A stretch of 64,000 bases of DNA from positions 1 to 64,000 of the forward strand of contig JBHIAV010000005.1 in assembly GCA_046758745.1 (NCBI GenBank). Reading direction: 5' to 3'. Made by a program: the position numbers and the translations under genes. This document shows positions 1,950-39,604 of the stretch, one piece after another. Position 1 is the stretch's first letter, and every line of letters starts with the position of its first letter. This DNA comes from Gemmatimonadota bacterium (GTDB lineage: Bacteria; Gemmatimonadota; Gemmatimonadetes; Palauibacterales; Palauibacteraceae). The notes under the pieces are model-generated. The model had not been told where the DNA came from. It saw nothing but the letters and a program-made list of their open reading frames with translations, and made no database searches.

Positions 1950-1986
1950 GTTGCGGTGCCGCCCTCATGTTCGTATCTATGCGAAC

Positions 1987-2238
1987 GTGGGAAGCAAGCG
2001 AACCCTGCGCTCGGTTTTCGTGGCGGCGACCGAGCTGGCGACCGAGACGCTCGGCGACATCGCCCGAGCCATCGGCCGCACGCGCCGGATGCTGGAGTTC
2101 TACCGGAGCGGCGAACGGCGGGTGACCCCCGAGGCCGCCCGGACGCTCGCGGGTCACCTCCGGGAGCGAGCGGGCACGCTGGAGCGAGTCGCGACTGAGC
2201 TAGAGCGCGCAGCCAACGAGGAGGAGACAGATGGGTAG
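1987..2238 (+). CDS. Small XRE-like HTH protein
   Basis: TLGDIARAIGRTRRMLEFYRSGERRVT is an HTH pattern; overlaps the integrase start; GTG at 1987 chosen as start (uncertain). Confidence 0.6.
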   Translation: MGSKRTLRSVFVAATELATETLGDIARAIGRTRRMLEFYRSGERRVTPEAARTLAGHLRERAGTLERVATELERAANEEETDG

Positions 2239-21208: not shown

Positions 21209-21931
21209 CTACAGCTCGGCTCGCAGCGCCCTCGCCGCCCGGGCCCGATGGCTCAGGCGGGCCTTCACCTCCGGCGGGAGCTCGCCGAACGTCTTGCCGT
21301 ACTCCGGCACGACGAACAGCGGGTCGTAGCCGAACCCGCCCTCGCCGCGCGGCTCCTCGGCGATCCGGCCGTGCACGACGCCCTCGGCCACCGCGGTCCG
21401 TGAGCCATCCACCAGGACGAGCGCGCACCGATAGTGCGCCGCCCGGCGATCCGCCGGCACGCCCTCGAGCCTTTCCAGCAGGTACGCGTTGTTGGCCGCG
21501 TCCCGTCCCAAACGCTCGGACCACTCGTCGGGGGCGAAGCGACGGGACCGGACGCCGGGCGCGCCGCGGAGCGCAGCCACGCACAGACCCGAGTCGTCGG
21601 CGAGGGTAGGCAGACCCGTGCGAGCGTGAAAATGCCGGGCCTTGGCGCGGGCGTTCTCCGCGAAGCTGTCGAACACCTCGATCGATGCTTCCTCGGCCCC
21701 GGGCCGAACGCCGATGTCGGTGAGAGAGACGAGCGCGAGCCCCTTGCCGCCGAGGAGGCCGCGAAGCTCGTTCAGCTTGTCGGCGCTTCGCGTGGCGACG
21801 AGAATCCTTCGACCGCGCGGCGGCCGCTTCTCCTCGGGGCTCCTGGGTTCGGCACGTCGGCCCCCGCGCCTGGACGCCTCCGGTGTCTCCGCTTCGCCCT
21901 TCAGATCACTCCTCGGCCCACAGGACCTCAT
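21209..21931 (-). CDS. rdgB: Non-canonical purine NTP pyrophosphatase (RdgB/HAM1)
   Basis: ATRSADK, ENARAKA, ADDSGL, GFGYDPLF and SHRARA motifs; true start uncertain. Confidence 0.9.
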   Translation of the reverse strand: MRSCGPRSDLKGEAETPEASRRGGRRAEPRSPEEKRPPRGRRILVATRSADKLNELRGLLGGKGLALVSLTDIGVRPGAEEASIEVFDSFAENARAKARHFHARTGLPTLADDSGLCVAALRGAPGVRSRRFAPDEWSERLGRDAANNAYLLERLEGVPADRRAAHYRCALVLVDGSRTAVAEGVVHGRIAEEPRGEGGFGYDPLFVVPEYGKTFGELPPEVKARLSHRARAARALRAEL

Positions 21932-22868
21932 CCTTCAGCTTCTCTCGCAGGCCGGGGTGCACGTTCCACATGTACACCCCCACGGTGAACGCGGCGATGA
22001 CGTTGCCGAGGAGGACCGACCACCAGGCGAGCTGCTCGAGGATCCAGTTGCCGAGCATCACGACCATCGCGATGAAGAACGTCTGCACCACCACGAACAT
22101 GAGGAGGAGGAGAAAGAGGATGGGCGGCGTACGCTCCGCCTGGGTGACGAGACCGGAGACGATCACGCCGAACACGAGGAACGCCGCGAGGTGGATCAGC
22201 GTGTATCCCAGTATGGTGGCCGCGGCGAAGTCGACGTTCCGGGCGGCGTCGGTACCGTGGAAGATCGCGGAGCCGAGCGCGGCCGGAGTGAAGAGGGGCC
22301 GTCCGGCCACAGAGTCCACGATGAGGAACCACACCGCCACGACGAACGCTCCGAGGAGTCCCGCCACGATCCCCTCCCGCAGGGTCCGGTGGGCCATGAG
22401 CTGCGCCCACACACCCGTCACCCCCGGCTCGGGGCTCGTCCAGTGCAGGTAGCCGACGATGACGAGGCCGGCGAGGACGTTCCCGAAAAAGACGGCCGGC
22501 CAGGCGGGGGCGGCCAGGATGTCCGTTCCGGACAGCACCAGCGAAGGGTAGAAGACGAGCGAGCAGGCGAAGAGGCCGTAGGCCGCTCCGAGCAGGAGAT
22601 TCTTCGGGAGCCGCGTCACCTCGAACAGGAGGGAGGCCCCTATCCCCAGGATGAGGAAGGCGACGTAGTGGGCGGCCGTGTACAGGGCGATCCGCAGCGA
22701 CCCGCCCTCCACCCCCATCTGCCCCAGCAGGGCGCCTGAGAGGAAGGTGGGCGTGTGAAGCGGCTGCCCACGCGCCAGGTCGAGGAAGAGGAAGACGATG
22801 ATGAGGACGGTCCCACCCAGCAGTCCCGCCATCACACCGTCCCACAGCGCCTTCCTGCTCAGCGTCAC
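21906..22868 (-). CDS. Polytopic membrane protein with an internal duplication, unknown function
   Basis: GTGA overlap with cyoE; two homologous halves (GVMAGLLGG...GQPLHTP / GIVAGLLGA...GRPLFTP; YTAAH / YTLIH). Confidence 0.8.
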   Translation of the reverse strand: MTLSRKALWDGVMAGLLGGTVLIIVFLFLDLARGQPLHTPTFLSGALLGQMGVEGGSLRIALYTAAHYVAFLILGIGASLLFEVTRLPKNLLLGAAYGLFACSLVFYPSLVLSGTDILAAPAWPAVFFGNVLAGLVIVGYLHWTSPEPGVTGVWAQLMAHRTLREGIVAGLLGAFVVAVWFLIVDSVAGRPLFTPAALGSAIFHGTDAARNVDFAAATILGYTLIHLAAFLVFGVIVSGLVTQAERTPPILFLLLLMFVVVQTFFIAMVVMLGNWILEQLAWWSVLLGNVIAAFTVGVYMWNVHPGLREKLKDEVLWAEE

Positions 22869-24037
22869 GGAGCATCCTCGCGAGCCCTCAGGGCTCGACC
22901 GGTCTCCCCGACGGCCTCCTCCAGAAGCCGCTCGACCTCCTCCCGCATGGCGCGCCGATACGTGTGCACCAGCCCGCCCCCGATCACCACGAGCAGGAAG
23001 GCGGGCGCCGCCATCAGCAGCACCATCCCCCAGAAGAAGCCCTGGCTCAGCTCCGGGCTCGACCCCTGGATGCATCCGGGGCATGCGAGCAGCTCTCCCG
23101 CCCCGGCCACGGATGCGGCCACGGCGGAACCCGCGCCCGGATCGAAGGTGAGAAGGAGGAGGAGTGCCGGAAGGTACACGAGCGACGCACGGAAGAGGCC
23201 ACGTGCGCGCCGCACATCGGCCTGGAGCGCGAAACGGAGGGCGCTCGTCAGGTATGCCGTTCCCAGCGCCACCGCTCCGAGGGCGTACACCGCCCCGCCG
23301 AGCCCCAGCACGGCCGGGATGAGGCTCACCGGAAGGAGGGCGAGCGAGTAGCTCACCGCCTGCCTTCCCGTGCGGGCTCCGCACGGGTCCGCCACGCTCA
23401 GCGTGCGCAGCCCCGCCCGCCTGTAGTCCTCCCGATACAGCCACCCGAGCGCGAGGAAGTGCGGGAGCTGCCACAGGAAGAGGATGGCGAACAGAGTGAT
23501 GGCGCCGGGGCCGAGCTCCCCGGTCGCCGCGCTCCATCCGCCGACGGCGGGGAGCGCGCCCGGGACCGCCCCGACCAGGATGGCCAGCGAGCCGACCCGC
23601 TTGAGCGGCGTGTACGCGAAGTCGTACACGATCAGGGCCAGGGCCCCCAGCGCGGCGGTGAGCAGGTTCACGGCCACGGCGAGGTACAGGACCCCTCCGG
23701 CCGCAAGAGCGAGGGAGAAGGCCATCGCCACGGCCGGCGACAGCCTTCCGTCGGGAAGCGGCCGGCGCCGGGTGCGGGCCATCCGCGCGTCCACGTCGCG
23801 CTCCAGCACCTGGTTCAGGGCGCTCGTGCCGCCACACACGAGCGCGATGCCGATGAGCGCCTCCAGGAGACCCGGCGCGCCAGCTGTGGAGCGAGCTCCC
23901 AGGAGATACCCGGCCGCGCTGGTCACCAGCACCATCAGGGTGATGCGCGGCTTCGTAAGGGAAAGGAGGTCGGCCGCCACGGACGTCCAGCCGGCCCGGC
24001 GGGAAGCCGCCGCCAGGGCCCCCGCCTCAGCGCTCAT
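22865..24037 (-). CDS. cyoE: Heme O synthase (protoheme IX farnesyltransferase) with a C-terminal CxxC-TM extension
   Basis: LTKPRI, NQVLERDVDARMARTRRRPLP, YTPLKR and WQLPHFLAL motifs. Confidence 0.93.
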   Translation of the reverse strand: MSAEAGALAAASRRAGWTSVAADLLSLTKPRITLMVLVTSAAGYLLGARSTAGAPGLLEALIGIALVCGGTSALNQVLERDVDARMARTRRRPLPDGRLSPAVAMAFSLALAAGGVLYLAVAVNLLTAALGALALIVYDFAYTPLKRVGSLAILVGAVPGALPAVGGWSAATGELGPGAITLFAILFLWQLPHFLALGWLYREDYRRAGLRTLSVADPCGARTGRQAVSYSLALLPVSLIPAVLGLGGAVYALGAVALGTAYLTSALRFALQADVRRARGLFRASLVYLPALLLLLTFDPGAGSAVAASVAGAGELLACPGCIQGSSPELSQGFFWGMVLLMAAPAFLLVVIGGGLVHTYRRAMREEVERLLEEAVGETGRALRAREDAP

Positions 24038-24105
24038 CCGGTGGCCCCCGCGTCGACCCTACCGCGTTCACGTCGCTGCGCCTCACGTCGGAGTCCCGTC
24101 CTGTT

Positions 24106-24375
24106 TCAGTATTCCATCAGCACCAGGACGACGAGGATCGCCGCCGGCAGGAGGGGGGCGGCGGCCACGACCGAGACCAGCCTCGGCTCGAAGCGGAGGT
24201 GCATGAAGTACAGAGCCACGAGGAGCGCCTTCCAGATCGCCAGTCCGAGCAGCCCCAGGATCGTCACGGCGCGGGGGAGCCCCATGAAGGCGACCCCGAG
24301 CTCGACTACCGTGAGGAGGGCCAGCCCGCCGAACACCGCCAGATAAGGAGGCTGTCTCTTTCGTGCCTCTTCCAT
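24106..24375 (-). CDS. Cytochrome c oxidase subunit IV (prokaryotic)
   Basis: 3 TM helices; LTVVEL and KALLVALYFMHLRFE motifs. Confidence 0.9.
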   Translation of the reverse strand: MEEARKRQPPYLAVFGGLALLTVVELGVAFMGLPRAVTILGLLGLAIWKALLVALYFMHLRFEPRLVSVVAAAPLLPAAILVVLVLMEY

Positions 24376-24385
24376 GCCGGACTCC

Positions 24386-25045
24386 TCAGATCAGGTATAC
24401 GACGGTGAAAAGGATAATCCACACCAGGTCCACGAAGTGCCAGTACAGCCCGATGATCTCGACGCCCTGGTGGTCCTCGCGCGTGTAGCCTCCCCGGAAC
24501 GCTCTCACCGTCACCCAGATCATCGAGATGACGCCGCAGGTTACGTGGAAGCCGTGGAAACCGGTCATCGTGTAGAAGGTGGCCCCGTACAGCGCCCCCG
24601 AGGCCGCCGGGAGCGCGCCGTGCGCCACCTCCTCCGCCAGCGCGCTCCCCGGTGCGTAGCCGCTCGGAAGGAAGCCGTGCTGGGCGAGGTGAATGTACTC
24701 GTACACCTGCACCCCGATGAACGTCGAGCCGATGAGGACGGTCGCGATGAGGAACGTCTTCAGGCCGCGGAGATCGCCGGTCTCGATCGCGGCGAACGCC
24801 TTCACCATCGTCACCGAGCTGCAGATGAGGATGAAGGTGTTGATGGCGGTGACGGGAACGTTGAGGACCACGCCCGGGGCCGGCCACTCCCCGGCCGCCC
24901 CGAAGCGCAGGATGATGTAGGACCCGATCAGCCCGGTGAAGAACATCACCTCCGAGCAGAGGAAGATCCACATCCCCACCTTTTTGTCATAGATGCCGAG
25001 CCCGCGCTCCCGGGGATGCTCGAGCGCCACCGCGTGCGTGCTCAT
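24386..25045 (-). CDS. ctaE: Heme-copper oxidase subunit III
   Basis: GMWIFLCSEVMFF, TGFHGFHV and GLYWHFVDLVW motifs. Confidence 0.93.
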   Translation of the reverse strand: MSTHAVALEHPRERGLGIYDKKVGMWIFLCSEVMFFTGLIGSYIILRFGAAGEWPAPGVVLNVPVTAINTFILICSSVTMVKAFAAIETGDLRGLKTFLIATVLIGSTFIGVQVYEYIHLAQHGFLPSGYAPGSALAEEVAHGALPAASGALYGATFYTMTGFHGFHVTCGVISMIWVTVRAFRGGYTREDHQGVEIIGLYWHFVDLVWIILFTVVYLI

Positions 25046-26811
25046 GCGGGCGCTCCCTTCGCGTGCGCGGGGGACACGATGTCCGGCCGCTCGTTCTGCG
25101 CCAGCCAGTCACGCTCCATGTCCGGATGGCTGTACTCGTACGGGCCGTGGTACACGACGGGGATCTCCTTCCAGTTCAGGTGCTTCGGCGGCGACGGGGT
25201 CTGCCACTCCAGGGTGGTCGCGTTCCACGGGTTCGCCGGCGCCCTCTCCTTGCGGAAGAGCCCGTATAGGAAGTTCCCGGCGAAGAGGAGGCCGGAGAGG
25301 AAGAGTCCGAGCGCGCTCACCGTGACCAGGATGTTCGTGTCCTCCAGGCCGGCCAGGTGCTGGTACTGGGTGGGGTCGTACAGCCGCCGCATCATCCCTT
25401 TCATGCCGAGCCCGTGCATCGGGAAGAAGGTCAGGTTGAAGAAGAGGAAGGTGAGGACGAAGTGGATCTTCCCCACCGTCTCGCTCATCATCTTCCCGAA
25501 CATCTTCGGGAACCAGTAGTAGAACGCCCCGAACAGGGCGAACAGGCTCCCGCCGAAGAGCACGTAGTGGATGTGAGCCACGATGAAATAGGTATCGTGG
25601 ATGTAGATGTCCACCGGCGTGGCCGCCATGTACACCCCGCTCAGCCCTCCGATCACGAACATCATCACGAACCCGATGCCGAAGAGGCTCGGGGAGGTGA
25701 GCTGGATGTCTCCCCGCCACAGGGTACCCATCCAGTTGAACGTCTTGATGGCGGAGGGGACGGCGATCACCATGGTCGAGACCATGAAGCTCATGCCGAG
25801 CGTCGGGTTCATCCCGCTCTGGAACATGTGGTGTCCCCACACGATGAACCCGAGGAAGGCGATCCCGATGATCGCGAACACCATGCTGTGATAGCCGAAG
25901 ATCGGCTTGCGCGAACCGTTGGCGATCAGCTCGGAGGTGAATCCCATCGCCGGCAGGATGAGGATGTACACCTCCGGGTGGCCGAAGAACCAGAAGAGGT
26001 GCTGCCACAGGAGCGGCTGTCCGCCCTCCGCCGGAAGGAAGAAGTGCGTGCCGATCGTCTGGTCGAACAGCAGCATGATCACCGCCGCCGCCAGGACCGG
26101 CATGGCCAGCAGCACCAGGATGGCCGTGATGAAGAGGGCCCATATCGACAGCGGTAGGCGGAACCAGGTCATGCCCGGCGCCCGCAGGTTGACGACCGTC
26201 GTGATGTAGTTCACCGCCCCGAGGAGCGAGCTCAGCCCGAGAACCAGGAGGCTGACGATCCACAGCTGCTGGCCGTACGACACCCCGCTCGCCTCCGGCA
26301 TGGCGCTCAGCGGCGCGTACGACGTCCACCCTGCGCCGGCGGCTCCTCCCTCCACCGCGAAGCTCGCCAGCATGATGATGCCCGCCGGGACGGCCACCCA
26401 GAAGGACATCATGTTGAGTCGCGGGAAGGCCATGTCCCGCGCCCCGATCTGGAGAGGGATGAGGTAGTTGGCGAACACGCCGACGAGCAGCGGCATGATG
26501 GCGAAGAACACCATGATCGTGCCGTGCATCGTGACGAGCGAGTTGTAGAACTCGGGGAGCACGAACCCCTGGTTGGCCATCGCCTCCGGCAGCAGGCGTC
26601 CGAGCGGCAACGGCCGGTCCGGCCAGGCGAGCTGGAAGCGCATCATCATCGCGAGCAGCCCGCCGACCAGTAGGAAGAAGAGGCTCATGAAGAGGAACTG
26701 TATCCCGATGATCTTGTGATCGGTCGAGAAGATGTACCTCCGGATGAACGGGAGCGGATGCTCCTCTTCGAGGATCGCCTGCCCCGTCGCCTCCGCTACG
26801 ATAGTCGCCAT
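25042..26811 (-). CDS. ctaD: Cytochrome c oxidase subunit I, type A1
   Basis: TMHGTIM, DMAFPRLN (D channel), WFFGHPEVY (A1), WGHHMF, K-channel Lys (AIKTFNW), HDTYFIVAHIHYV, MRR. Confidence 0.97.
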   Translation of the reverse strand: MATIVAEATGQAILEEEHPLPFIRRYIFSTDHKIIGIQFLFMSLFFLLVGGLLAMMMRFQLAWPDRPLPLGRLLPEAMANQGFVLPEFYNSLVTMHGTIMVFFAIMPLLVGVFANYLIPLQIGARDMAFPRLNMMSFWVAVPAGIIMLASFAVEGGAAGAGWTSYAPLSAMPEASGVSYGQQLWIVSLLVLGLSSLLGAVNYITTVVNLRAPGMTWFRLPLSIWALFITAILVLLAMPVLAAAVIMLLFDQTIGTHFFLPAEGGQPLLWQHLFWFFGHPEVYILILPAMGFTSELIANGSRKPIFGYHSMVFAIIGIAFLGFIVWGHHMFQSGMNPTLGMSFMVSTMVIAVPSAIKTFNWMGTLWRGDIQLTSPSLFGIGFVMMFVIGGLSGVYMAATPVDIYIHDTYFIVAHIHYVLFGGSLFALFGAFYYWFPKMFGKMMSETVGKIHFVLTFLFFNLTFFPMHGLGMKGMMRRLYDPTQYQHLAGLEDTNILVTVSALGLFLSGLLFAGNFLYGLFRKERAPANPWNATTLEWQTPSPPKHLNWKEIPVVYHGPYEYSHPDMERDWLAQNERPDIVSPAHAKGAPA

Positions 26812-26833
26812 GCGATCGTACCTCTCTCCGTTG

Positions 26834-27514
26834 TCACTCCGCGGCGGCTGCCACGGCCTCGCTTCTCTCCCGGTACCACGCCTCGTAGGAGGCGGCGTCG
26901 TGGACCTTCACGGAGGCCCGCATCCTGTAATGACCCGGCCCGCACAGCTCGGCACAGCCGATCTGGAAGTCCCCCGTCTCGGTGGCCTGGAACCAGATCG
27001 GGATGGTCATGCCCGGGACGGCGTCCTGCTTCACCCGTAGCACCGGGATGAAGAAGGAGTGGATCACGTCCTCGGAGGTCAGTCGGACGATGATCGGTTC
27101 GCCCACCGGGATGTGGAACTGATTGCGGATCGTGAAGTCGTCTTCGTTGCCGGGGATCCGGTCCGTTCCGGGGTAGGTGACGTTCCACTCGAACTGCTTG
27201 GCCGTCACGCTCAGGGTGAGGGCGTCCTCCGGAAACGAGTCGGGGCCGCGGATGTCCGCCCAGATGCGTCCGCTGTAGATGCCGAGGAGGACCACGGTGA
27301 CCGCGGTCACCGATGTCCACGTCACCTCGGCCCGCACATCGCCGTGCGTGTACCGCGCGCGGTGCCCCTCGCGCCGCCGGTATCTGAAGACGAACCACAG
27401 GACGCCCGTTTCGACGATCACGAAGGCGATGCCGGTGACCCAGGCGATGATCCAGAAGAGCCGGTCGATGTCGACGCCCTGCGTCGAGGCGTTGATCGGT
27501 AGCGACCAGTCCAT
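26834..27514 (-). CDS. ctaC: Cytochrome c oxidase subunit II (CuA, no fused cytochrome c)
   Basis: 2 TM helices; QFEW, DVIHSF and CAELCGPGHYRM CuA motif; ATG at 27514 after GGAGAGG. Confidence 0.95.
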   Translation of the reverse strand: MDWSLPINASTQGVDIDRLFWIIAWVTGIAFVIVETGVLWFVFRYRRREGHRARYTHGDVRAEVTWTSVTAVTVVLLGIYSGRIWADIRGPDSFPEDALTLSVTAKQFEWNVTYPGTDRIPGNEDDFTIRNQFHIPVGEPIIVRLTSEDVIHSFFIPVLRVKQDAVPGMTIPIWFQATETGDFQIGCAELCGPGHYRMRASVKVHDAASYEAWYRERSEAVAAAAE

Positions 27515-27599
27515 GCCCTCTCCCCTTTTCAGTCGCGATCGAGGCGGGGCGCCGCGCGTCGGACGAAAGCCCGAGATGCGCGGCGTCCCCGGCCGAAGC

Positions 27600-28451
27600 T
27601 CATCGCGCGGCCGCCGCGTGGACCCCGTGCAGGTCGATCGGCTCGCCGAGCGGCACGACGGCATCGGCCGCCATGTCACTGCGGAAGGTGAAGCTGATCT
27701 CCTTCGTCTCCTGCGCGCCCACCGTGACGTTTTGGGTGAGCGTGCCGTACAGCTCGTGCCACGCCTCGACGACGTAGTCTCCCGGCGGCAGCCCGTCGAG
27801 GGTGAAGGATCCGTTCGACCCGGAGACGGAGTGGAAGGGGTGCTCCGTGACGCCGATGTAGGCCTCCATCCACCCGTGCACGTCGCACTTCACCGGGACC
27901 ATGATCTCGGGGAAGGCGAACTTTTTCGTCGTCTCCATTCCCTCACGCGGCTGGCTCACGTTGAAGCCGCGGTTCTCCGTCGGCTGGGTGTTGATGTTGT
28001 GCAGCAGCGGGTCGCTGTTCCTGATGAGGAGCGGCTGCCCGGCCTGGATCCCCAGCACGTGCGGATGGTACCGGCAGCCATCCTGGTCGATCACGACTGG
28101 CTCCGAGGGTGGCGCGAAGCTCTGGCTGAGCCCGGACTTCACGTACACGAAGACATTGGCCAGCCGCCCGTCCGTCACCACCACGCCCTCGGTCATGGGC
28201 GGGCCTTCCTCGTACTTGACAGCGCAGTCCGGCTCCTCGGCCATGTCGATCGGCTGCGCGGCAGGCGGCGTACCCTCGAAAGCAATGTGGCCGCGAATCG
28301 TGGCGGCGACCGCCGGATCGACGGCCGGCGCGGCCGATGCGGCTTCGCCGCCTTCCTCCGCGCCCGCGCTCTCGCCCTCGCCTCCACCGCCGCACGCCAT
28401 GAGGCCCACCAGAAGGACCCCGGTCGCCAGCATCCTCTCTCGATCTCTCAT
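27600..28451 (-). CDS. Lipoprotein with cupredoxin-like and carboxypeptidase-regulatory-like domains
   Basis: Lipobox LMAC; DQDGCRYHPHV, NSDPLLHN, KCDVHGWM; LPPGDYVVEAWHE. Confidence 0.8.
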   Translation of the reverse strand: MRDRERMLATGVLLVGLMACGGGGEGESAGAEEGGEAASAAPAVDPAVAATIRGHIAFEGTPPAAQPIDMAEEPDCAVKYEEGPPMTEGVVVTDGRLANVFVYVKSGLSQSFAPPSEPVVIDQDGCRYHPHVLGIQAGQPLLIRNSDPLLHNINTQPTENRGFNVSQPREGMETTKKFAFPEIMVPVKCDVHGWMEAYIGVTEHPFHSVSGSNGSFTLDGLPPGDYVVEAWHELYGTLTQNVTVGAQETKEISFTFRSDMAADAVVPLGEPIDLHGVHAAAAR

Positions 28452-28497
28452 CCCTTGCCTCCGAAGAAAGAGCCTCCGACTCTCGGCAGAGCCGTTC

Positions 28498-30066
28498 TCA
28501 CACCATGACCGCCTGCGCCTCCTCCTCCCGGCGCGCCCGCCGCTGCGCTCGCGATACCGCCAGCAGACCGAGGCCGCCGGTGAGCAGCACGGCCAACACG
28601 GGCGCCGCGTACCGGACGGTGGAGGCGGGTTCCTCCAGGTACACATAGTACCATCCGCTCACCGATCCCCGCACGGCCGTCTCCCCGCTGGAGCCATCCC
28701 ACGCGAAGAACGCCACCGGGATGGCGACACCCTCCTGGAAGGCGAGCGCCCCTTCCGTCTTTGTCACCAGGGCACGCCGGAAGTGCACGCGCCACCGGCC
28801 GTCATCGTACGCGGCGGAGCCGCCCACTCCCTCGCCGTCCATCGGCTGGAGCTGGCCGAGCCCCCGGGCCCAGGCCTCGCCGACCCCACCCTCGCTCCCC
28901 CAGCTCCAAAGGTACACGGGCCTCCGTCCGTCGCCCATCAGGAAGTACGGCCTCTCCATCCCTTCCGGGATCGTCGGCGGGAACTGCACGAGAAGCCCGT
29001 CGGGGAGATGCGGCAGCTCGGTGACGGTCGTATCCCGATCGTCGGCGAAGAGCGTGGCCGTGATCTTTTCCTGCCACTCGTCCCACGAGGGATCCGGACT
29101 GCGTGAGGGGTCCGACCAGCTCACGCGCATCGCCAGCTCCGTCCCGTCGTGCGCCGCCTGCACCCACACCCCATCCACCGCGGGTGCCAACTGGCGGGGC
29201 TTCTGGATCACCTGACCGACGAGGGGGATGTAGAAGGTCTCCATCTTGTCCCACCCCTGCGCGTCGGGACCGTCCGGGAGAGGGCCCTCGAACCGGCGCG
29301 CGACGATTACGTCCCGCACGCGGGGCTCGCTCTCCGGCGCGAGGCTGCGGACGTAGCGCGCCAGGTCCCACAGCTCCTTGTCGGACACCACCCCGGAGGC
29401 GAGGGCGTCGCTGTACGCCGGCATCGGCGTGCCGTCCAGCCCGGTGAGCATCCGAGTGTGGATCGCCTCGACCGTGAAGCCGCCGTTGAAGCCCCAGGGC
29501 TCGGTGAGATCGGCCGCGCGGATGGGCAGCTTCCGCCAATCCTCGAGCGTCGGCGCCGATTGTCCGTTGCCACGGCCGGAGTCGCCATGGCACTTCCAGC
29601 ACTCGAGCGCCCGGTAGGCGTCCCTCCCGGACTCGAGGGCGTCCGCCCCACCGCCCGGGTCGCTCCCCAGATCGGCCGGCTGCGGGGCGGCCCCCTGGAA
29701 GAAGCGCGAGAAGCTCTTGATGTAGGCGATCACGTCCCGTCGCTCGGCCTCGCCGAGGTTCGGCCACGCCGGCATCACGGTGCCCGGCATGCCGTTGCGC
29801 AACACGTTGAGGAGATCCTCATCGGTCGGGAGCTCCCCGCTCGCCGTGGTGCGAATCTGGTAGCGTGCCTGCACGAAGTCGCGCGGCCGCGGGAGCATCC
29901 GATCGGCGGCCGGACCGTCGCCGCGTCCCTCGGCGCCGTGACACTCCACGCACCACTTCTCGTACAGCGCCCTCCCCCGCTCCGCGTCCTGCGCCCCGCA
30001 GGGCGCGGCCAGGGCGAGGAGGGTGAGGGCGGCCGCGCATGCGGGCCCGACGCCGCGCGAGCTCAA
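28498..30066 (-). CDS. Diheme cytochrome c fused to an ethylbenzene-dehydrogenase-gamma-like (EB_dh/DOMON) domain, with C-terminal TM anchor
   Basis: TTGA overlap start; CVECH and CWKCH with GTVMP/GTPMP Met ligands; AMRVSWSDPS, PYFLMGD and FFAWDGSSGE motifs. Confidence 0.85.
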   Translation of the reverse strand: MSSRGVGPACAAALTLLALAAPCGAQDAERGRALYEKWCVECHGAEGRGDGPAADRMLPRPRDFVQARYQIRTTASGELPTDEDLLNVLRNGMPGTVMPAWPNLGEAERRDVIAYIKSFSRFFQGAAPQPADLGSDPGGGADALESGRDAYRALECWKCHGDSGRGNGQSAPTLEDWRKLPIRAADLTEPWGFNGGFTVEAIHTRMLTGLDGTPMPAYSDALASGVVSDKELWDLARYVRSLAPESEPRVRDVIVARRFEGPLPDGPDAQGWDKMETFYIPLVGQVIQKPRQLAPAVDGVWVQAAHDGTELAMRVSWSDPSRSPDPSWDEWQEKITATLFADDRDTTVTELPHLPDGLLVQFPPTIPEGMERPYFLMGDGRRPVYLWSWGSEGGVGEAWARGLGQLQPMDGEGVGGSAAYDDGRWRVHFRRALVTKTEGALAFQEGVAIPVAFFAWDGSSGETAVRGSVSGWYYVYLEEPASTVRYAAPVLAVLLTGGLGLLAVSRAQRRARREEEAQAVMV

Positions 30067-30869
30067 CTCCCCCCTCCTCCCGCCGCCAGCTCCCACGTGC
30101 GCGGCGTCCATCCCGTCTGGTCGTACAGGTACAGGATCACCGCCCAGATCTCCTCCTCGGCGAGAAGAGACTCCCAAGCCGGCATGGCGGAGTTCCACGG
30201 CGTCCCCTCCCTGGGCAGCCCCGGTCCCCCTTTGGCGATGCGCCAGAAGACATAGCTCTCGGTGAGCTGGGCGATCGTGCCGTTGTCCGTGAAGTCGGCC
30301 GGGACCGGATTGAAGGCGTGGGCGAAGTGCCCCTCGCCGTCCAGGCGATCGCCGTGGCACGGGACGCAATTCTGCACGTAGACCCGCGCGCCGACCTGCA
30401 GGTGCTCCTGCATGGAGCCTTCCGCCCTCAGGGGATTCTCCAGTCCCGCCAGGCGCATCGTCTTCCCGCGGAAGGTGATCTCGTTCGGCGGAGCCGGATG
30501 GATCGAGCGGAGCGCGGCCGGCGCGGCGAAGCTCGGACGCACCTGCCGGTACGCGGCGAACCCGATGAGAAGGGGCAGGACGATGAGCAGGGCGATCCGT
30601 ACCCCGCGCCGATCCGGGTCCACCATCACCCCGTGGATCGGCTCCTTGAAGGTCCGCCACCGCTCCTCATCCGCGCTCACGTACAGGAGGACGCCGACCA
30701 GGGCGGTGAGCATGAACTGCACCACGACCGAGCGGGGCACGGGAGCGCTCGCAGCTCCGAAGAGCGGGGGCAGGTAGGCGATCCCGTAGCGGAAGAGGAG
30801 GTACGAAGCCGCGAGGAGGAGAAGGGCCTGCCAGAACGGGTGCCGGAGGAAGCCGCGGGGATCCGTCAC
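30063..30869 (-). CDS. Membrane-anchored monoheme cytochrome c
   Basis: 3 N-terminal TM helices; CVPCH; NSAMPAW distal Met. Confidence 0.88.
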   Translation of the reverse strand: MTDPRGFLRHPFWQALLLLAASYLLFRYGIAYLPPLFGAASAPVPRSVVVQFMLTALVGVLLYVSADEERWRTFKEPIHGVMVDPDRRGVRIALLIVLPLLIGFAAYRQVRPSFAAPAALRSIHPAPPNEITFRGKTMRLAGLENPLRAEGSMQEHLQVGARVYVQNCVPCHGDRLDGEGHFAHAFNPVPADFTDNGTIAQLTESYVFWRIAKGGPGLPREGTPWNSAMPAWESLLAEEEIWAVILYLYDQTGWTPRTWELAAGGGGS

Positions 30870-30987
30870 CGTCGCATCCTCCAGGTGGCTCCCCGCCTCC
30901 TCGCGCCGCCGCGCCGCCGGAACCGCCGGCGCGAACCCTCACGCTCTCCCGCATGGGGCCGCGCGGCACGACCGATCGGGACGCGGC

Positions 30988-31785
30988 TCACTTTCGCTCC
31001 GACAGGAACTGCACGATCGCCTCGAGCTGCGCAGCCGTAAGCTGCTGGCCGAACGTGGGCGGCATCGTGCCGGCGAACTGCTCGAAGCCCTGCGCCGTGT
31101 CCGCGTTCGGAAAGAGGATGGAACGGCGGATGTAGTCCGGCGCCAGGCGCGCTCCCATCCCGTCGAAGGGGGGACCGAGGGCGCCACCCGCCCCGTCGAG
31201 CAGGTGGCAGGCGAGGCACCCGCTCGCCTCGATGAGCTCGCCCGGGTCCGTAGCGGCCGGCGGCGTCCCGGCTCCACCCTGCGGCGCGGCGGCCGCCACG
31301 CCACCGCTCGCGGGGGCGCCTTCCTCCCCCGCCGTAGCGGCAATGTCATCGGCCGTAACCGTCACCGTCCCGCCCTGGCTCTCGAGGAAGGCCACCACGG
31401 CCCAGATCTGTTCGTTGGAGAGGGTGCGCCGCATGTCCGGCATGATCGGCTGGAAGCCCTCCACGAGGAAGGCCGTCGGCTCGACCAGCGACTGATACAG
31501 GTACTCCTTGCAGGCGAAGTCAGAACGCCGCGTCGCGCAGTTCGAGCCCACGACGCCCAGGAGGTCGGGAGCGCGGGTGCCGAGCCCGTGGCACGTCGTG
31601 CAGCCCCCGGCCCCCAGGTAGATCTCCTCTCCCGCCGCCGCCAGCTCCTCCGCGGTCACGTCCGCCCCGAGCACGAGCTCGGTCGGGACCTCCGACTCCA
31701 GCTGAGGGATGATGTTCGCCACGGTGGTGTACACGGCCAGGGTGCCGACCACCGTCAGAACGATCGCCACGTTCGTGCGCCACAC
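30988..31785 (-). CDS. Membrane-anchored diheme cytochrome c
   Basis: GTG start after GAGG; CTTCH...PIMP and CLACH...GTMP. Confidence 0.88.
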   Translation of the reverse strand: MWRTNVAIVLTVVGTLAVYTTVANIIPQLESEVPTELVLGADVTAEELAAAGEEIYLGAGGCTTCHGLGTRAPDLLGVVGSNCATRRSDFACKEYLYQSLVEPTAFLVEGFQPIMPDMRRTLSNEQIWAVVAFLESQGGTVTVTADDIAATAGEEGAPASGGVAAAAPQGGAGTPPAATDPGELIEASGCLACHLLDGAGGALGPPFDGMGARLAPDYIRRSILFPNADTAQGFEQFAGTMPPTFGQQLTAAQLEAIVQFLSERK

Positions 31786-31795
31786 GTCCGGTTCC

Positions 31796-33628
31796 TCAGC
31801 TCCCCGTCGCCAGCTCGGGGGCGAGACCGCCGGGTCCGCCCGCCCGCGCGGTGGCGAGCACCGGCTTCTCCACCAGGCCCCCGATCCAGAAGATGAGCGC
31901 CACCAGTCCAAGGAAGATGAGCACGCACACGCTGATGATCACCGACGCCGGCCCGAGCGCCGGGGTGACGGCCTGCGGACTCGTGTCCCGGACGACCTCA
32001 TAGATGTGCCAGTGCTGCCGGATGCCGCTCCGCGCGAAGCCCATCAGCCCCATCAGCCAGGTGAAGGTGACCGCGAGGATGAAGAGCGCGTACTGCGAGC
32101 GGGCCGGCATGTGGCCCCAGCGGATGGCGCCGCGCGATTCCGCCCCGCGCATGAGCGCGATGTCGATGAAGACGACGAAGAGGATCGCGGCCAGCACGGC
32201 GAGCACCTGGTAGACGCTGAACCCGATGCGCACGATCGCGGTGACGAAGTAGCCGTACACACCGTAGAAGACGACCACCGCCGTCGCGGCGGCCAGCGCG
32301 ATCCCCTGCGTGATCGTCCCCGTCCGTGCCCAGCTCACCACCGGGGTCTTGTTGGCCCGCCGGTACAGCATGAAGGAAAGGAAGGTGGTGAGGATCATCA
32401 GGTTCACCGCGGTGTTCTTGGCGCTCATCACGCCGAGCACGCCGAGGAAGGGATGGTGCGTCCCTCCCATCGCCGCGATCTCGTCGCGGGTCGCGATCAT
32501 GGTGTGCGGGGTAGCCCACACGATCACGCCGAGGACCAGGAGGAGGAGCATCCACTTCACGTACTTCGTGAACCGCTCGGCCCCCGGGATCCTCCCCATG
32601 CCGATCCACAGGTAGTAGTTGCCGGCCAAGAAGAGCACCCCGATGAGGAAGGCCTGGACGATCCACAGCCAGCTCATGAAGCCGCCCATCATCGTGATGC
32701 CGAGCTGCTCGTTGAACTCGTAGACCTCCCGGCCCAGGTAGTAGCCGGCGAACGGGAGGACGATGAGGGCTCCGATGGCGATGAAGTTCCCCACGTAGCC
32801 CATCCAGTCGTAGTGCGCCCGCTCCTCGTCGGTACGGGCGGCGAGGAAGCGGTAGGCGGCGTACGCGCCCACAATGGCCCCGCCGAACACCACGTTGGCG
32901 ATGAGCCGGTGGATGTTGATCGGCATCCAGGTGGCGTTGGCGATGGCGCTCCACGTCTGCACGGTGGCCGGGGCCGTGTCCGGTGTCGCCTCGGCGGGCG
33001 GGCTCATCATGTAGGTGAGCCATCCGTTGGCGATGAACATCACCACCGTGCCCCACACGTTGAGCAGGATCCCGAGGCTCCAGTGCCACGCCTTGGCCCG
33101 CCCCGCCTTCCACCGCTCCCACCCGTAGTAGTACAGGTACAGGGTGAACGACTCCAGGAAGAAGAGCCCGACGTACAGCCACATCGAGGGTCCGAAGACG
33201 GCCGTCATGTATGCCCAGAAGACGGGGTACAGGGTCGAGAGGAAGAAGACGAGGATGGCGCCCCAGATCGCCGTGGCGCTGTAGGCGATGAGGAGGAGGC
33301 GGGTGAACTCCCTGGCCAGCCGGTCGTATCTGTCGTCCTTGCCGAAGATCCCGATCGCCTCCACCACCACCGCGAACATCGGAACCCCGAGCACGAAGGC
33401 CGCGAACATGAGGTGCACCTCGGCCGCGATCCACACCGCTCCGCGCGCGCCCACGATCGGGAAGTCTCCGTACGCCCGGACCGCCTCCTGCGCGACGAGC
33501 GGATCGGCCGCGAGCAGCAGCCCGGCGGCGATCGCCCCTCCGACGCCGAAGGCGCGTCTCCCGACCCTCCTACCAGCCGCAGCGGGCGCCCGCACGCGCC
33601 GCGTGCCGAGGCGGGGGGATCTTCTCAC
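31796..33628 (-). CDS. Cytochrome bd subunit I-like ('bd-like oxidase') membrane protein; no CydB partner nearby
   Basis: GTGA overlap start; HLMFAAFVLGVP, RYDRLAREF, FFLESFTLYLY, INIHRLIAN and MGFARSGIRQHW motifs; more than 12 TM segments. Confidence 0.82.
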   Translation of the reverse strand: MRRSPRLGTRRVRAPAAAGRRVGRRAFGVGGAIAAGLLLAADPLVAQEAVRAYGDFPIVGARGAVWIAAEVHLMFAAFVLGVPMFAVVVEAIGIFGKDDRYDRLAREFTRLLLIAYSATAIWGAILVFFLSTLYPVFWAYMTAVFGPSMWLYVGLFFLESFTLYLYYYGWERWKAGRAKAWHWSLGILLNVWGTVVMFIANGWLTYMMSPPAEATPDTAPATVQTWSAIANATWMPINIHRLIANVVFGGAIVGAYAAYRFLAARTDEERAHYDWMGYVGNFIAIGALIVLPFAGYYLGREVYEFNEQLGITMMGGFMSWLWIVQAFLIGVLFLAGNYYLWIGMGRIPGAERFTKYVKWMLLLLVLGVIVWATPHTMIATRDEIAAMGGTHHPFLGVLGVMSAKNTAVNLMILTTFLSFMLYRRANKTPVVSWARTGTITQGIALAAATAVVVFYGVYGYFVTAIVRIGFSVYQVLAVLAAILFVVFIDIALMRGAESRGAIRWGHMPARSQYALFILAVTFTWLMGLMGFARSGIRQHWHIYEVVRDTSPQAVTPALGPASVIISVCVLIFLGLVALIFWIGGLVEKPVLATARAGGPGGLAPELATGS

Positions 33629-34986
33629 GATCGGTCCCTGCCTCCGGCGAAGAACGGGAGGCGACGCGAGAAGTCGATCGGCATCTCCGAGCGAATCCTC
33701 TCCATGAGCTCCGGCGTGACGCGGGCGTGCCCCTTCCGGCGGGCGTACGCCTCGACCCGGCTCACCACGACACCCCGCACGAAGGAGGGGATCCGGGCGA
33801 GCCGCGCCTCGGCCTCCGGCGTCCACTCCAGCTCCGGGAGCTGCGCCATGCCGTACAGCACCGCGCGCCGAGGCTCCACCACCGGGAGGTCGCCGGCGGG
33901 CTCGTACGCGCAGGAGGGATCCTCGGCCAGGAAGTCCCCGTCCCGCGCGAAGGCGCGTGCCCGGCACCCGCCGCACACCTTCCGGTACTCGCACCTTCCG
34001 CACTTCCCCCCCAGCTCCCCCTCGCGCAGGAGGCGGAAGAGGGGAGCCGAGCGCCACACCTCCGCGAACCCCTCCGACCGCAGGTCGCCGGCCACGGCCG
34101 GAAGGTAAGGGCAGGGCGTAAGCTTCCCCTCGGGAGTGATCCGGCAGTACTGCACGCCGCATGGGCAGCGGGTGCCGTAGTTGAGGAGAGGCGACTCGGG
34201 GTCGGACTCCCATGCGTGACGCATGATCTGCGGCTGGCACTTCGAGCGGACGAGCATCCGGCCCCGGTATCTCCGCTCCAGGATGACGAGGCCGCGCAGG
34301 ACCTCCTCGTTCTCGACCGGAGCGAGGCCCCGCATCCCCTCACCCCGACCGGTCTGGACCAGGAAGTACACGTTGAACGACACGGCCCCCGCATCGGCGG
34401 CCCACTCGGCCAGTGCGGGTATCTCGTCCCGATTCCCTCGCGTGACCGTCGTCTGGACGATGAAGTCGAGGCGCGCATTCCTCAGCCGTTCCACCGCCCC
34501 CAGCGTCTCCTCCAGCGCTCCGGATCCGTGCCGGAAGCGGTCGTGGTAGCGAGGGTTCAGCGAGTCGACGCTGATCGCCGCCCCGCTCACTCCGGCCTCC
34601 TGCAGGGACTCGATTCGCTCCACGGTCAGCCGCGTGCCGTTCGTCCCGACGACCACCGTGGCGCCCCCCTTGTGGGCGTGTGAGGCGATCGCCTCCAGGT
34701 CGTCGCGGAGGAGGGGCTCGCCCCCGCTGAGGATCAGCAGGGGAGCGGGGTTCAAGGCGAGGATCTCTTCGATGATGCGGAAGCACTCCCCCGTCGTGAG
34801 CTCTCCCTCCGCGGAGTGCCACGTTCCGGCGGAGATATAGCAATGCGCGCACGCGAGATTGCAGCGACGGGTGACGTTCCACGCCACCACGTGGGGAAGG
34901 TAGCCGTCGCCGGCAGCCGGCCGTGCCCCCGGACGCGCCGCCACGAGGGCCTCCGGCCACTCGGGTGCGCCGGCCGGCCCGCTCAC
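33625..34986 (-). CDS. Radical SAM/SPASM protein (AhbD/NirJ-like) with C-terminal PCP_red domain
   Basis: WNVTRRCNLACAHCY; SGGEPL; SPASM cysteines (CPCG, TPCPY, CGRC...CGGCRARA...DPSC); tail LEWTPEAEARLARIPSFVRG. Confidence 0.88.
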   Translation of the reverse strand: MSGPAGAPEWPEALVAARPGARPAAGDGYLPHVVAWNVTRRCNLACAHCYISAGTWHSAEGELTTGECFRIIEEILALNPAPLLILSGGEPLLRDDLEAIASHAHKGGATVVVGTNGTRLTVERIESLQEAGVSGAAISVDSLNPRYHDRFRHGSGALEETLGAVERLRNARLDFIVQTTVTRGNRDEIPALAEWAADAGAVSFNVYFLVQTGRGEGMRGLAPVENEEVLRGLVILERRYRGRMLVRSKCQPQIMRHAWESDPESPLLNYGTRCPCGVQYCRITPEGKLTPCPYLPAVAGDLRSEGFAEVWRSAPLFRLLREGELGGKCGRCEYRKVCGGCRARAFARDGDFLAEDPSCAYEPAGDLPVVEPRRAVLYGMAQLPELEWTPEAEARLARIPSFVRGVVVSRVEAYARRKGHARVTPELMERIRSEMPIDFSRRLPFFAGGRDRS

Positions 34987-37423: not shown

Positions 37424-37454
37424 AGTATATAGCCGCGGCGGCGACAGCTGTCAA
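37424..37454 (-). promoter_or_regulatory. Sigma70-like promoter of the USP-rSAM-bd-like-cox gene run
   Basis: TTGACA-N19-TATACT (or N17-TATATA); palindrome GACAGCTGTC overlaps the -35. Confidence 0.6.
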
Positions 37455-38302: not shown

Positions 38303-38333
38303 GGGTGCTCCCTCCCCCGACCCTCTCTGTCCC

Positions 38334-39350
38334 TCACGGGCCGCCGCGAGCGGAGAGACCCGTCCCCCGCAGCGCCGTCTCGTCGGGGGCCGGGGCCGCC
38401 CCGTCGAGGGGAACCCCGGCCAGCTCCAGGAAGACGTCGGCAAGGTTCGGCTCGTGCACCCGAATGGAGCGGGGCTCGCACCCGGCCTCGAGCAGGCGTG
38501 CGCACAGCTCCGGGAGCGCGGCGCCCCCCGCGGGTGAAGCGAAGCGTGCTCCCTGCGGATACAGTGCCAGCGTCCGCACCTGCGGCTGCGGTTCGAAGCT
38601 CCTGCTCGGCATCTTTCCCGACACCTCGATCACGGTCTCCTTCGCCAGCCCGGCGATGAGGTCGCGGGGAGGGCCGTCCGCGATGAGCCTTCCGCCGTGC
38701 AGGAAAGCGACCCGGCTGCACGCCGTCTCCACGAACGCCGGATCGTTGGAGGCCACCAGGGCCGCCGCTCCTCTCGACGCCGCATCGGCCATGGCCGCTC
38801 GCAGCGCCGCCACGCCGAGGGGATCCAGCCCGAGCGTGGGCTCGTCGAGCAGGAGGAGGTCGGCTGATGCGGCCACCGCCTCTGCGAGGGCGAGACGGCG
38901 GCGCATCCCGTGCGAGTAGATCGATACCCTTTCCACAGCGCGGTCGGCGAGGCCGAAGTCGCGCAGCGCGCTATCCAGCGCACCGGCCGCTGCCTCGCCC
39001 CCGTGTCCCCTGAGGCCGAGCAGACGGAGAACGTTCTCGCGCCCCGGGAGGGATTCCTGAAACGGAGTGCGGTCGAAGACGACGGCAACCCGCCGGCGGA
39101 GGTGCGACGCCGAGTCGGAGGGCTCGTTCGGGAAGAGGCGTGCCGAGCCCTCGGCCGGAGGGAGCACCCCGGCTACGATGCGGAGAAGGGTCGTCTTCCC
39201 GGAGCCGTTCGGCCCCATCACTCCGAGGACTTCCCCGGCCGCCAGCTGGAGCGTCAGCCCCACCAGAACAGGCGGCCCGTCGGCGTAGCGGTGGCCCAGC
39301 CCGCACAGGGCCAGGACGGGTCCCACCGGGACGGACGGACCTGTCGTCAT
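38334..39350 (-). CDS. ABC transporter ATP-binding protein (exporter type)
   Basis: GPNGSGKTT, YSHGMRRR, LLLLDEPT; C-terminal EPNLADVFLEL. Confidence 0.9.
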   Translation of the reverse strand: MTTGPSVPVGPVLALCGLGHRYADGPPVLVGLTLQLAAGEVLGVMGPNGSGKTTLLRIVAGVLPPAEGSARLFPNEPSDSASHLRRRVAVVFDRTPFQESLPGRENVLRLLGLRGHGGEAAAGALDSALRDFGLADRAVERVSIYSHGMRRRLALAEAVAASADLLLLDEPTLGLDPLGVAALRAAMADAASRGAAALVASNDPAFVETACSRVAFLHGGRLIADGPPRDLIAGLAKETVIEVSGKMPSRSFEPQPQVRTLALYPQGARFASPAGGAALPELCARLLEAGCEPRSIRVHEPNLADVFLELAGVPLDGAAPAPDETALRGTGLSARGGP

Positions 39351-39604
39351 GGGACGAGCGTGTGACCGTCCTCGTCATACACGGTGATCGCGTCCACCGG
39401 ACAGGCGGCGCACGCCCGCAGGAGACGCTCTCGCCCCACCGCCTCCGGAGTCGTCAGCACCGCGATCTCTTCCGCGTCCAGCGCGAACGCCGCCGGCGCT
39501 TCGGCGATGCACTCCGCGAAGCCGACGCACAGGCCCCGGTCGATCGCCACGCGAAGCCTCCCGACCCGGCGGTCGCACCGCGCATCCGCGATGGCTTCCG
39601 GCAT
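39347..39604 (-). CDS. Single-cluster ferredoxin ([3Fe-4S]/[4Fe-4S] type)
   Basis: IDRGLCVGFAEC...ACAACPVDAI; alternative GTG start at 39706. Confidence 0.85.
   Translation of the reverse strand: MPEAIADARCDRRVGRLRVAIDRGLCVGFAECIAEAPAAFALDAEEIAVLTTPEAVGRERLLRACAACPVDAITVYDEDGHTLVP

Follow-up and report, generated by a model that had tools for sequence, protein, structure and literature searches.

An OR-N-type bd-like module in a conserved gene run with an A1 haem-copper oxidase in Gemmatimonadota

Gene organization and conservation of the locus

The 64,000-nucleotide stretch analysed here (the window) is contig C5 of a Gemmatimonadota genome, G000, of 3.08 Mb and 87% completeness. On its minus strand, a gene for a protein resembling the cytochrome bd subunit CydA (the bd-like protein) is followed by three cytochrome c genes, these four together termed the module, then by a gene for a cupredoxin-like lipoprotein and directly afterwards by the genes of an A1 haem-copper oxidase (Table 1). 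The first-pass annotation had described one co-directional run from the bd-like gene through the cytochromes c and the lipoprotein to coxII, coxI, coxIII, coxIV, cyoE and a duplicated membrane protein; all of them indeed lie on the minus strand in this order, with junctions ranging from 4-bp overlaps to one 118-bp gap. The five CxxCH motifs it counted are located at 31602 and 31218 (dihaem cytochrome), 30368 (monohaem cytochrome), and 29952 and 29601 (dihaem protein with EB_dh domain). Domain and profile searches likewise found no gene for CydB, Rieske/cytochrome b, alternative complex III (ACIII; act), CtaA or SCO within the run, although ACIII, cydAB, a Rieske/cytochrome b pair and ctaA sit elsewhere in the genome. 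The upstream limit drawn at that time was too short: the unit begins earlier, with the genes of a universal stress protein (USP) and a radical SAM protein abutting the run, the latter overlapping the bd-like gene start by 4 bp, and with a ferredoxin, an Mrp ATPase and a PCP_red protein encoded just beyond.

Conservation was evaluated in 150 Gemmatimonadota genomes at least 90% complete, which together with G000 give a phylum sample of 151. Near full-length orthologues of the bd-like protein, sharing 66–86% identity across the class, are present in 42 of the 150, resulting in 43 carriers including G000 and 108 non-carriers; in all counts comparing the two groups, kin are not independent, for which reason Fisher values on them are overstated, and absence means not found among the genomes searched. 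Carrier loci were retrieved for 40 of the 42, and the order bd-like, dihaem, monohaem, EB_dh, cupredoxin, coxII, coxI is kept in 37 of these, the other three ending at a contig edge. A second set comprises the best 80 of at least 587 related loci from a GTDB scan, all 80 from metagenome-assembled genomes of the Gemmatimonadota lineage; the same bd-like-to-coxI order is found in 59, another 20 are too short, and one (L194) differs. The bd-like/cox linkage is thus conserved in 37/37 carrier loci and 59/60 GTDB loci of sufficient length, two sets that may overlap and, being related by descent, are not independent. Across the orthologous loci, the median intergenic gap is at most 38 bp at each of ten junctions, and cyoE and the duplicated membrane protein are variably present.

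Since the gaps are short, no conserved terminator is seen and a TTGACA promoter-like site lies upstream of USP, a single transcript from USP onward is likely judging from the sequence, and the module and the cox genes likely form one operon. A TTGACA/TATACT-like pattern, outside the reach of a scan with 16–18 spacers, recurs upstream of USP in 50 loci. In the same region no exact FNR or CRP box was found in 83 loci, and the 5' leader displays no likeness across families; an Rfam scan of window positions 20000–42000 gave no match. A weak hairpin with a T-rich tail at 28491–28474, in the gap between the EB_dh and cupredoxin genes, was ruled out as a terminator, as a terminator-like element occurs in 1 of 62 gaps longer than 30 bp; no conserved internal terminator was found between the bd-like module and cox. 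Cox genes of the cluster type also occur without the module, in G065 (seen at locus L097) and G124, which both belong to family f7 and both have a high-scoring CydB.

Table 1. Features of the module, the oxidase genes and the accessory cassette in the window
Feature	Position	Strand	Basis and occurrence
Mrp/ApbC (NUBPL) Fe-S carrier ATPase, accessory	40149..41036	-	PF10609, E 4.9e-64; upstream in relatives; 9/45 distant loci
Small Cys-motif protein with PCP_red domain, accessory	39703..40152	-	PF08369; upstream in relatives; 9/45 distant loci
Small ferredoxin, accessory	39347..39550	-	PF13370; upstream in most of 10 relatives inspected
Sigma-70-like promoter candidate, TTGACA then TATACT 19 bases on	37424..37454	-	Predicted; likely transcript start
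USP with PCP_red domains, accessory	35099..37108	-	PF00582 and PF08369; upstream in 40/40 loci; 16/45 distant loci
Radical SAM/SPASM protein, AhbD/NirJ2-like, with PCP_red	33625..34986	-	Profile scores; 43/43 carriers, 0/108 others
OR-N (N1/N2-type) bd-like protein, 610 aa	31796..33628	-	PF01654 partial match; alignment, model, tree
Membrane-anchored dihaem cytochrome c	30988..31785	-	2 CxxCH; fused to bd-like proteins in P0123, P0132
Monohaem cytochrome c, about three membrane helices	30063..30869	-	CxxCH and distal Met invariant in 62 rows
Dihaem cytochrome c (6H5L chain B type) with EB_dh domain and C-terminal anchor	28498..30066	-	6h5l_B, E 7e-49
Lipoprotein with predicted type-1 copper site (H151, C189, H192, M195) and carboxypeptidase-regulatory-like domain	27600..28451	-	Ligands in 78/78
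CoxII with CuA site, without fused cytochrome c	26834..27514	-	TIGR02866 over cut-off; CuA ligands in 77/77
CoxI, type A1	25042..26811	-	GHPEVY; ligands and channels in 67/67
CoxIII	24386..25045	-	PF00510
CoxIV	24106..24375	-	PF03626
Haem o synthase CyoE/CtaB with C-terminal extension, variable part	22865..24037	-	TIGR01473 over cut-off; missing after coxIV in several relatives
Internally duplicated 8-helix membrane protein, no family, variable part	21906..22868	-	Halves 34% identical, E 2e-15

The bd-like protein and its redox partners

The match of the bd-like protein to PF01654 spans only profile positions 4–240 of 418. The AlphaFold model of residues 47–610, built with 134 sequences (pLDDT 94.6, pTM 0.92), has 13 long helices, which together with an N-terminal hydrophobic, signal-peptide-like segment read from the sequence make 14. 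Structural similarity search with this model revealed that the ten best matches are all CydA, with Z-scores of 31–35; the likeness to ActF/ActC (Z 20–23) lacks a canonical-CydA control and is non-discriminating. A FastTree phylogeny of 72 rows, which includes no labelled OR-N1/N2 references, places the protein among OR-N-like proteins, within a Gemmatimonadota clade of 12 rows (support 100) and apart from canonical CydA, which sits on a branch of length 3.3. Two findings had been named beforehand as fatal to the system, namely a grouping with canonical CydA together with a cydB elsewhere, and a bd-like/cox linkage that is unconserved and interrupted by an internal terminator or promoter; neither was observed. 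A cydB does exist elsewhere in G000, beside the genome's own canonical cydA, and 34 of the 43 carriers have no CydB match at all.

The residues were compared by alignment with CydA of Geobacillus, of mycobacteria and of G000 itself, using E. coli numbers; for His186, Met393, Glu445, Trp441, Arg448 and Trp451 these are the numbers we take to apply, and Glu445 is presumably a haem ligand in CydA. Accordingly numbered, H72 corresponds to His19, E159 to Glu107 and H240 to His186, whereas Y152 occupies the place of Glu99, S534 that of Glu445 and G530 that of Trp441; R537/W540 align with Arg448/Trp451. H72 is invariant in 52/52 orthologues. M401 was assigned as the equivalent of Met393 from topology and invariance, because the pairwise alignment is weak there. 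The place of the Q-loop is taken by two helices, the equivalents of the quinol-binding Lys252 and Glu257 are absent, and the Asp239 site is occupied by R300; the roles of His19, Glu99, Glu107, Lys252 and Glu257 follow the accessible part of 10.1101/2021.01.16.426971, and that of Asp239 the accessible part of PMC13189123. Two extra invariant histidines, H392 and H541, are located on the periplasmic side, and buried Glu, Tyr, His, Met and Arg residues are invariant across distant lineages. At 17/17 tested positions the protein is identical to the bd-like proteins of loci L249, L251 and L271, whose layout (Rieske, cytochrome b, second bd-like gene) is that of the NIDE0901-type region in the available text of PMC6606698.

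With the first four CydA helices and His19, no quinol residues or Q-loop, 14 helices, no haem c motif in the subunit (unlike OR-C), alternative donors in the operon and no CydB, the protein fits the published description of an OR-N1/N2 member of the cytochrome bd superfamily. It lacks what defines the canonical quinol-oxidizing CydAB (qOR): the quinol site with its Q-loop, Glu99 and Glu445, and a CydB partner in the run. As it stands alone, with no second CydA-like gene in the run, the label OR-N2 appears likelier than OR-N1; OR-N2 is often without such a gene according to the portion of 10.1101/2021.01.16.426971 available. The first-pass annotation had considered an undescribed complex, but the family already bears the name OR-N in that paper, and a complex III-like role was proposed in PMC3578206, as far as their accessible sections go. 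Members are often annotated as "cytochrome ubiquinol oxidase subunit I".

Natural fusions of bd-like proteins with such partners exist: P0123 (34%) and P0132 include a dihaem-type cytochrome, and P0125 includes a haem c domain. In the EB_dh protein, the dihaem domain is a match to 6h5l_B (E 7e-49), which we take to be Kustc0457. The EB_dh domain of the protein scores 102.5 against TIGR03477, under the cut-off of 169.85, so that it falls outside EbdC/NxrC. Met and Lys are presumably the haem b ligands of this DMSO reductase type II haem b subunit (EbdC/NxrC), and the pair is not conserved here, the Lys site being Arg in 89/103 rows and the Met site being Met in 61/103. The lipoprotein has a type-1 copper ligand set (His...Cys-x2-His-x2-Met) in 78/78 copies and is predicted to bind copper. 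A search of solved structures with this cupredoxin gave nothing significant. Among predicted models, CoxII proteins of one Atlas cluster include a domain that matches it (TM 0.93), which ties the cupredoxin to CuA. As a substitute for SCO the cupredoxin is not supported, since SCO is found in 4/5 carriers and 4/5 non-carriers; in the 87%-complete assembly of G000, no SCO was found.

By its ligands and channels the oxidase is a canonical A1 haem-copper oxygen reductase: CoxI has GHPEVY, the cross-link Tyr, all six His ligands, the D-channel Asp/Asn and the K-channel Lys in 67/67 rows, and CoxII has the CuA ligands in 77/77. CoxII contains no CxxCH and is thus not of the caa3 type, while most other cox loci retrieved from the phylum have haem c fused to CoxII. 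At threshold, cluster-type CoxII is found in 41/43 carriers and 2/108 non-carriers; the two carriers missed are explained by one match below threshold and one contig end. A COX1 search covering 52 genomes returned the cluster CoxI as the sole match in G137 and G109.

Putative maturation cassette, genome background and distant relatives

The radical SAM orthologue, at 62% identity or more, occurs in exactly 43/43 carriers and 0/108 non-carriers; weaker matches were at 35–38%, apart from one 48% fragment at a contig edge. Its best profiles, NirJ2 (292.9 bits) and AhbD (286.5 bits), stay far under the cut-off of 500, indicating a related family only. PCP_red domains are common to USP, the small Cys-motif protein and the radical SAM protein. 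A scan of metagenomes that took a distant fusion protein as its seed yielded 79 loci, of which the 45 of at least 6 kb were examined; USP is encoded in 16 of them, the radical SAM protein in 14, Mrp in 9 and the PCP_red protein in 9. Since most of these loci have no cox, the cassette follows the module rather than the oxidase. The radical SAM protein was also considered as the general haem b synthase of the cell, a role that is disfavoured because ChdC-family genes are present in 5/5 carriers tested. It is likely a haem-maturation enzyme dedicated to the module, whose haem may thereby be modified or be supplied independently of oxygen. Adjoining the cassette on its upstream side, at window positions 41986–44008, are an HmuY-like gene (plus strand) and hemC (minus strand), and haem synthesis-like genes flank the cassette in some relatives too. 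An ABC ATPase and a permease, kept in only some relatives, lie between the Mrp cassette and USP at 37550–39326.

Elsewhere, G000 encodes a complete six-gene ACIII on contig C14 with no cox adjoining, cydAB with cydB beside the canonical cydA, a Rieske/cytochrome b pair on contig C36, ctaA, nosZ and three further COX1 genes. The run itself has neither the ACIII set (pentahaem ActA, ActB, NrfD-type ActC, ActD, ActE and ActF) nor the Rieske protein and bis-His cytochrome b of a bc1/b6f complex. ActD is present in 43/43 carriers and 101/108 non-carriers, and bc-type cytochrome b in 16/43 and 42/108, respectively; replacement of ACIII or bc by the module is rejected on this basis, and with it the earlier suggestion of a module filling the place of an absent complex III. 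ActD is encoded in 144/151 genomes of the phylum, in contrast to a KEGG-based survey that gives ACIII in fewer than 10% in its accessible part (PMC9426454). Two cytochrome b6-like genes (L048:9513-10553 and L049:8735-9742) have no recognised Rieske neighbour, one of them being located beside heavy-metal efflux-like genes.

The beta subunit of nitrite oxidoreductase (NXR) type, with the query used, is found in 1/43 carriers (G000), 0/42 carrier relatives and 1/108 non-carriers. Dependence of the module on NXR is therefore rejected for the lineage, and the earlier label of probable non-nitrifier suits the lineage but not G000, which encodes on another contig an NXR-type molybdoenzyme scoring 1644 bits to Kuenenia NxrA. 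Its operon (L053:2269-9587, contig C53 of G000), of the Anammox/Nitrospira NXR type or a periplasmic nitrate reductase operon, contains alpha, a small open reading frame, beta, a chaperone and a gamma subunit with dihaem c and haem b, the beta subunit occurring in only 2/151 phylum genomes. This gamma subunit retains both the Met and the Lys haem b ligands. The cbb3 subunit CcoO is found in 0/43 carriers and 35/108 non-carriers (0/27 and 23/47 within family f3), and CydB in 9/43 and 44/108. For nosZ the counts are 10/43 and 52/108, and a positive link between module and nosZ in the phylum is rejected.

G000 has a second OR-N module (L051:6335-19760, contig C12), about 53% identical and lacking cox, with two cupredoxin-like genes and several cytochrome c genes ahead of it; its relatives are labelled Rokubacteria, NC10, Chloroflexi and TA06. 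On contig C15 (32038-39998), a putative B-family-like haem-copper oxidase (GHPLVY) lies directly downstream of a nosZ-nosL-nosD-nosF-nosY-like run. Within the window, positions 13772–16768 encode a membrane protein of 998 aa with five CxxCH motifs and TPR repeats, and positions 83–3466 hold a plus-strand run of reading frames with atypical codon scores at the contig start, which appears mobile-element-like.

In the 45 distant loci the bd-like protein is accompanied by the monohaem cytochrome in 39, the dihaem cytochrome in 37, the EB_dh protein in 35 and the cupredoxin-like protein in 23; the gene orders differ from that in the window, and cox is mostly absent. The module has a Rieske gene next to it in 9/45 and a cytochrome b gene in 8/45, and Act and NXR queries gave no match in the available flanks. 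An A-type cox with cupredoxin adjoins the module in a different order in 4/45. These four loci (L240, L241, L242 and L246) come from a non-Gemmatimonadota lineage with a GC content of 0.51–0.60, and their module and cupredoxin-cox genes are followed by the same maturation cassette downstream. Because the CoxI of L240 and L242 shares a broad clade with the cluster CoxI, with the branching unresolved, an independent origin of the module-cox linkage is not demonstrated. In five loci (L223, L224, L226, L230 and L231) the module is inside a nos cluster, with a NosD fusion and nosY in 5/5, nosZ in 3 and nosL in 3; the fusion is of Fe-S/NosD type, and a separate FMN-binding gene is present. In the tree, the bd-like protein of L223 is sister to that of L233, whose layout resembles L229 (Nitrospirota).

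Proposed electron route, alternatives and relation to known systems

The present gene set suggests a branched terminal hub, in which one wire of cytochromes c and cupredoxin would supply electrons to the A1 oxidase as well as to an OR-N oxygen reductase; we favour this reading and put its chances at about even. Menaquinol would be oxidized by the ACIII encoded elsewhere, whose gene set is present and whose role is taken from known ACIII, and the electrons would pass to the periplasmic c haems of the module, whose motifs are seen and whose partner is assumed. From there, one branch may run from the dihaem domain via the cupredoxin to CuA of a CoxII without its own cytochrome c, as adjacency and fusion suggest. 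In the other branch, the dihaem cytochrome c, fused to the bd-like protein elsewhere, would deliver electrons to a low-spin haem b on H240/M401 and onward to a haem ligated by H72; this would be the place of O2 reduction, with E159 on the route of the protons, as judged from alignment and topology. The radical SAM protein, USP, Mrp and ferredoxin, which co-occur with the module, might supply or modify its haem; the existence of a dedicated AhbD/NirJ-like enzyme despite ChdC agrees with a special catalytic haem or with a role at low oxygen. As a second oxygen reductase, the OR-N protein would likely serve under low oxygen.

With two helices in place of the Q-loop, the protein needs a donor other than quinol; c-type cytochromes are adjacent or fused, and with ActD in 43/43 carriers no input module is missing. 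The second oxygen reductase is preferred because complex III is not lacking, a quinol site cannot be recognised, all 17 tested positions match the NIDE0901-type loci and the carriers are without cbb3; the CydA fold, the kept equivalents of His19, Glu107 and His186, and the existence of cox without the module in G065 and G124 also speak for it. Of the two options in the first-pass annotation, the second cytochrome c-fed reductase is thus the one preferred, and the idea of a stand-in for an absent complex III is dropped. Several points weigh against the branched hub. It would be unusual for a single transcript to carry both a low- and a high-affinity oxidase. Tyr stands in the place of Glu99, Ser or Ala replaces Glu445, and Gly occupies the Trp441 site in each of the 22 rows listed, so that the two-haem O2 site is incomplete in its classical form. 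The run includes neither a CydB nor another CydA-like partner, and a second bd-like paralogue is found in only 4/43 carriers. The cbb3 and CydB patterns are confounded by kinship and carry no tree correction, and the five nos loci suit an electron donor at least as well. Moreover, the module is conserved in strictly anaerobic anammox bacteria in the accessible part of PMC3578206, and no assay of an OR-N enzyme was found in the literature as far as it was accessible.

A less probable, though still substantial, alternative is a complex III-like electron-input unit. In it, the bd-like protein would have a new type of site for menaquinol oxidation, and the c haems and cupredoxin would relay the electrons to enzymes with CuA, which are CoxII in this locus and NosZ elsewhere, with reverse flow from NXR in nitrite oxidizers as a variant within the same reading. 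It would explain the strict place directly upstream of a CoxII without its own haem c, a cox clade nearly restricted to carriers (41/43 vs 2/108), the cluster CoxI as sole COX1 match in G137 and G109, the loss of the O2-site glutamates, and the recurrence of the module beside an A-type cox in different order in another lineage (4/45 loci) and inside nos clusters (5 loci); such a role was also proposed in the available portions of PMC3578206 and PMC6606698. However, the Q-loop and the Lys252/Glu257/Asp239 equivalents are absent with no alternative quinol site identified, every carrier has ActD, the module shows no anticorrelation with bc-type cytochrome b, a Rieske gene accompanies the module in 9/45 distant loci, the nos clusters already have NosR-like FMN and Fe-S domains, and the likeness to ActF/ActC does not discriminate. 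Slightly more tentative is a bolder form, a third kind of complex III on a CydA scaffold, with a radical-SAM-modified haem, a new menaquinol site and a wire into a co-encoded periplasm-facing enzyme; it would join an A1 oxidase in a supercomplex in the present lineage and one other, and pair with NosZ in a third and with NXR in nitrite oxidizers.

The altered active site, with its invariant Tyr and the extra invariant His392 and His541, and a neighbourhood of nitric oxide (NO)- or O2-sensitive enzymes (cox, NosZ, NXR) could also mean that the bd-like protein draws on the c haems for electrons to reduce or scavenge NO or peroxide, thereby shielding the copper enzymes expressed along with it; we consider this improbable, as denitrification genes show no positive link in the phylum (nosZ 10/43 vs 52/108). 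Lower still do we rate a protein without turnover, serving as a haem-binding anchor or haem-handling scaffold that organizes cytochromes and oxidase: the loss of both the quinol site and two active-site glutamates, the nearby haem synthesis and HmuY-like genes and the degenerate-looking EB_dh domain would suit it, but 66–86% identity across the class and the invariant buried Glu, Tyr, His, Met and Arg in distant lineages point to chemistry.

Among known systems, OR-N1/OR-N2 (Murali, Gennis and Hemp; 10.1101/2021.01.16.426971) share 14 predicted helices, His19, the lack of quinol residues and of haem c, and an alternative-donor operon, whereas the shared run with an A1 oxidase and the dedicated radical SAM cassette receive no mention in the accessible part of that paper. 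The bd-like_2 (NIDE0901-type) and bd-like_3/alt_NxrC clusters of Nitrospira, Nitrospina and anammox bacteria and TO_1 of Manganitrophaceae likewise combine a bd-like protein with dihaem c, monohaem c and NxrC-like and cupredoxin-like neighbours, in the accessible parts of PMC6606698, PMC3578206, PMC12342949 and 10.1101/2021.11.15.468770. The identity to Nitrospira/Nitrospina/anammox-type bd-like loci is about 48–51%, with the same residue pattern. Compared to these clusters, the Gemmatimonadota lineage is mostly without NXR, encodes both ACIII and haem-copper oxidases, and has its module linked to cox; the Nitrospira analysed in the available sections of PMC6606698 have no canonical haem-copper oxidase, and there the NIDE0901-type region is a putative terminal oxidase.

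In ACIII-caa3 and bc1-aa3 operons and supercomplexes, too, a membrane redox module with c-type cytochromes lies directly upstream of an A-type oxidase, but the present run has no ActA-F, Rieske or cytochrome b and no recognised quinol site, and ACIII is encoded separately. Canonical CydAB (qOR) shares the fold (Z 31–35), the N-terminal four helices and the His19/Glu107/His186 equivalents, and differs in the Q-loop, Glu99 and Glu445 equivalents and CydB, all missing here, and in the four extra helices present here. Kuenenia Kustc0457, a dihaem c with the cupredoxin Kustc0456, resembles the EB_dh-cupredoxin pair in having a 6h5l_B-type dihaem domain next to a type-1 copper protein gene, but its partner is an HAO-like protein, and the two cupredoxins are likened by gene position and type only (accessible part of PMC12053348). 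No publication that describes the link to cox, the radical SAM cassette or the placement in nos clusters was found in a search that left most subscription literature outside, and the supplements of 10.1101/2021.01.16.426971 may already list the Gemmatimonadota/cox context.

Altogether, the system is real, conserved and out of the ordinary, but it is built on a named family with a complex III-like role already in print in 2013 (PMC3578206, from its accessible part). In Nitrospira and Nitrospina, OR-N proteins are presumed to act as the terminal oxidases, with activity, subunit make-up and oxygen affinity unconfirmed in the available text of PMC10839748 and PMC12342949. The module is now seen outside nitrification, in 42/150 sampled Gemmatimonadota genomes, tied to a standard oxidase. 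Naming of the family as "cytochrome ubiquinol oxidase subunit I" may inflate counts of cytochrome bd. Relative to the earlier descriptions, in so far as these are accessible, the parts list is new in the radical SAM/USP/Mrp/PCP_red cassette, which would probably be needed for expression, and in the cupredoxin link to CuA, and it makes the question of oxidase versus complex III open to expression tests.

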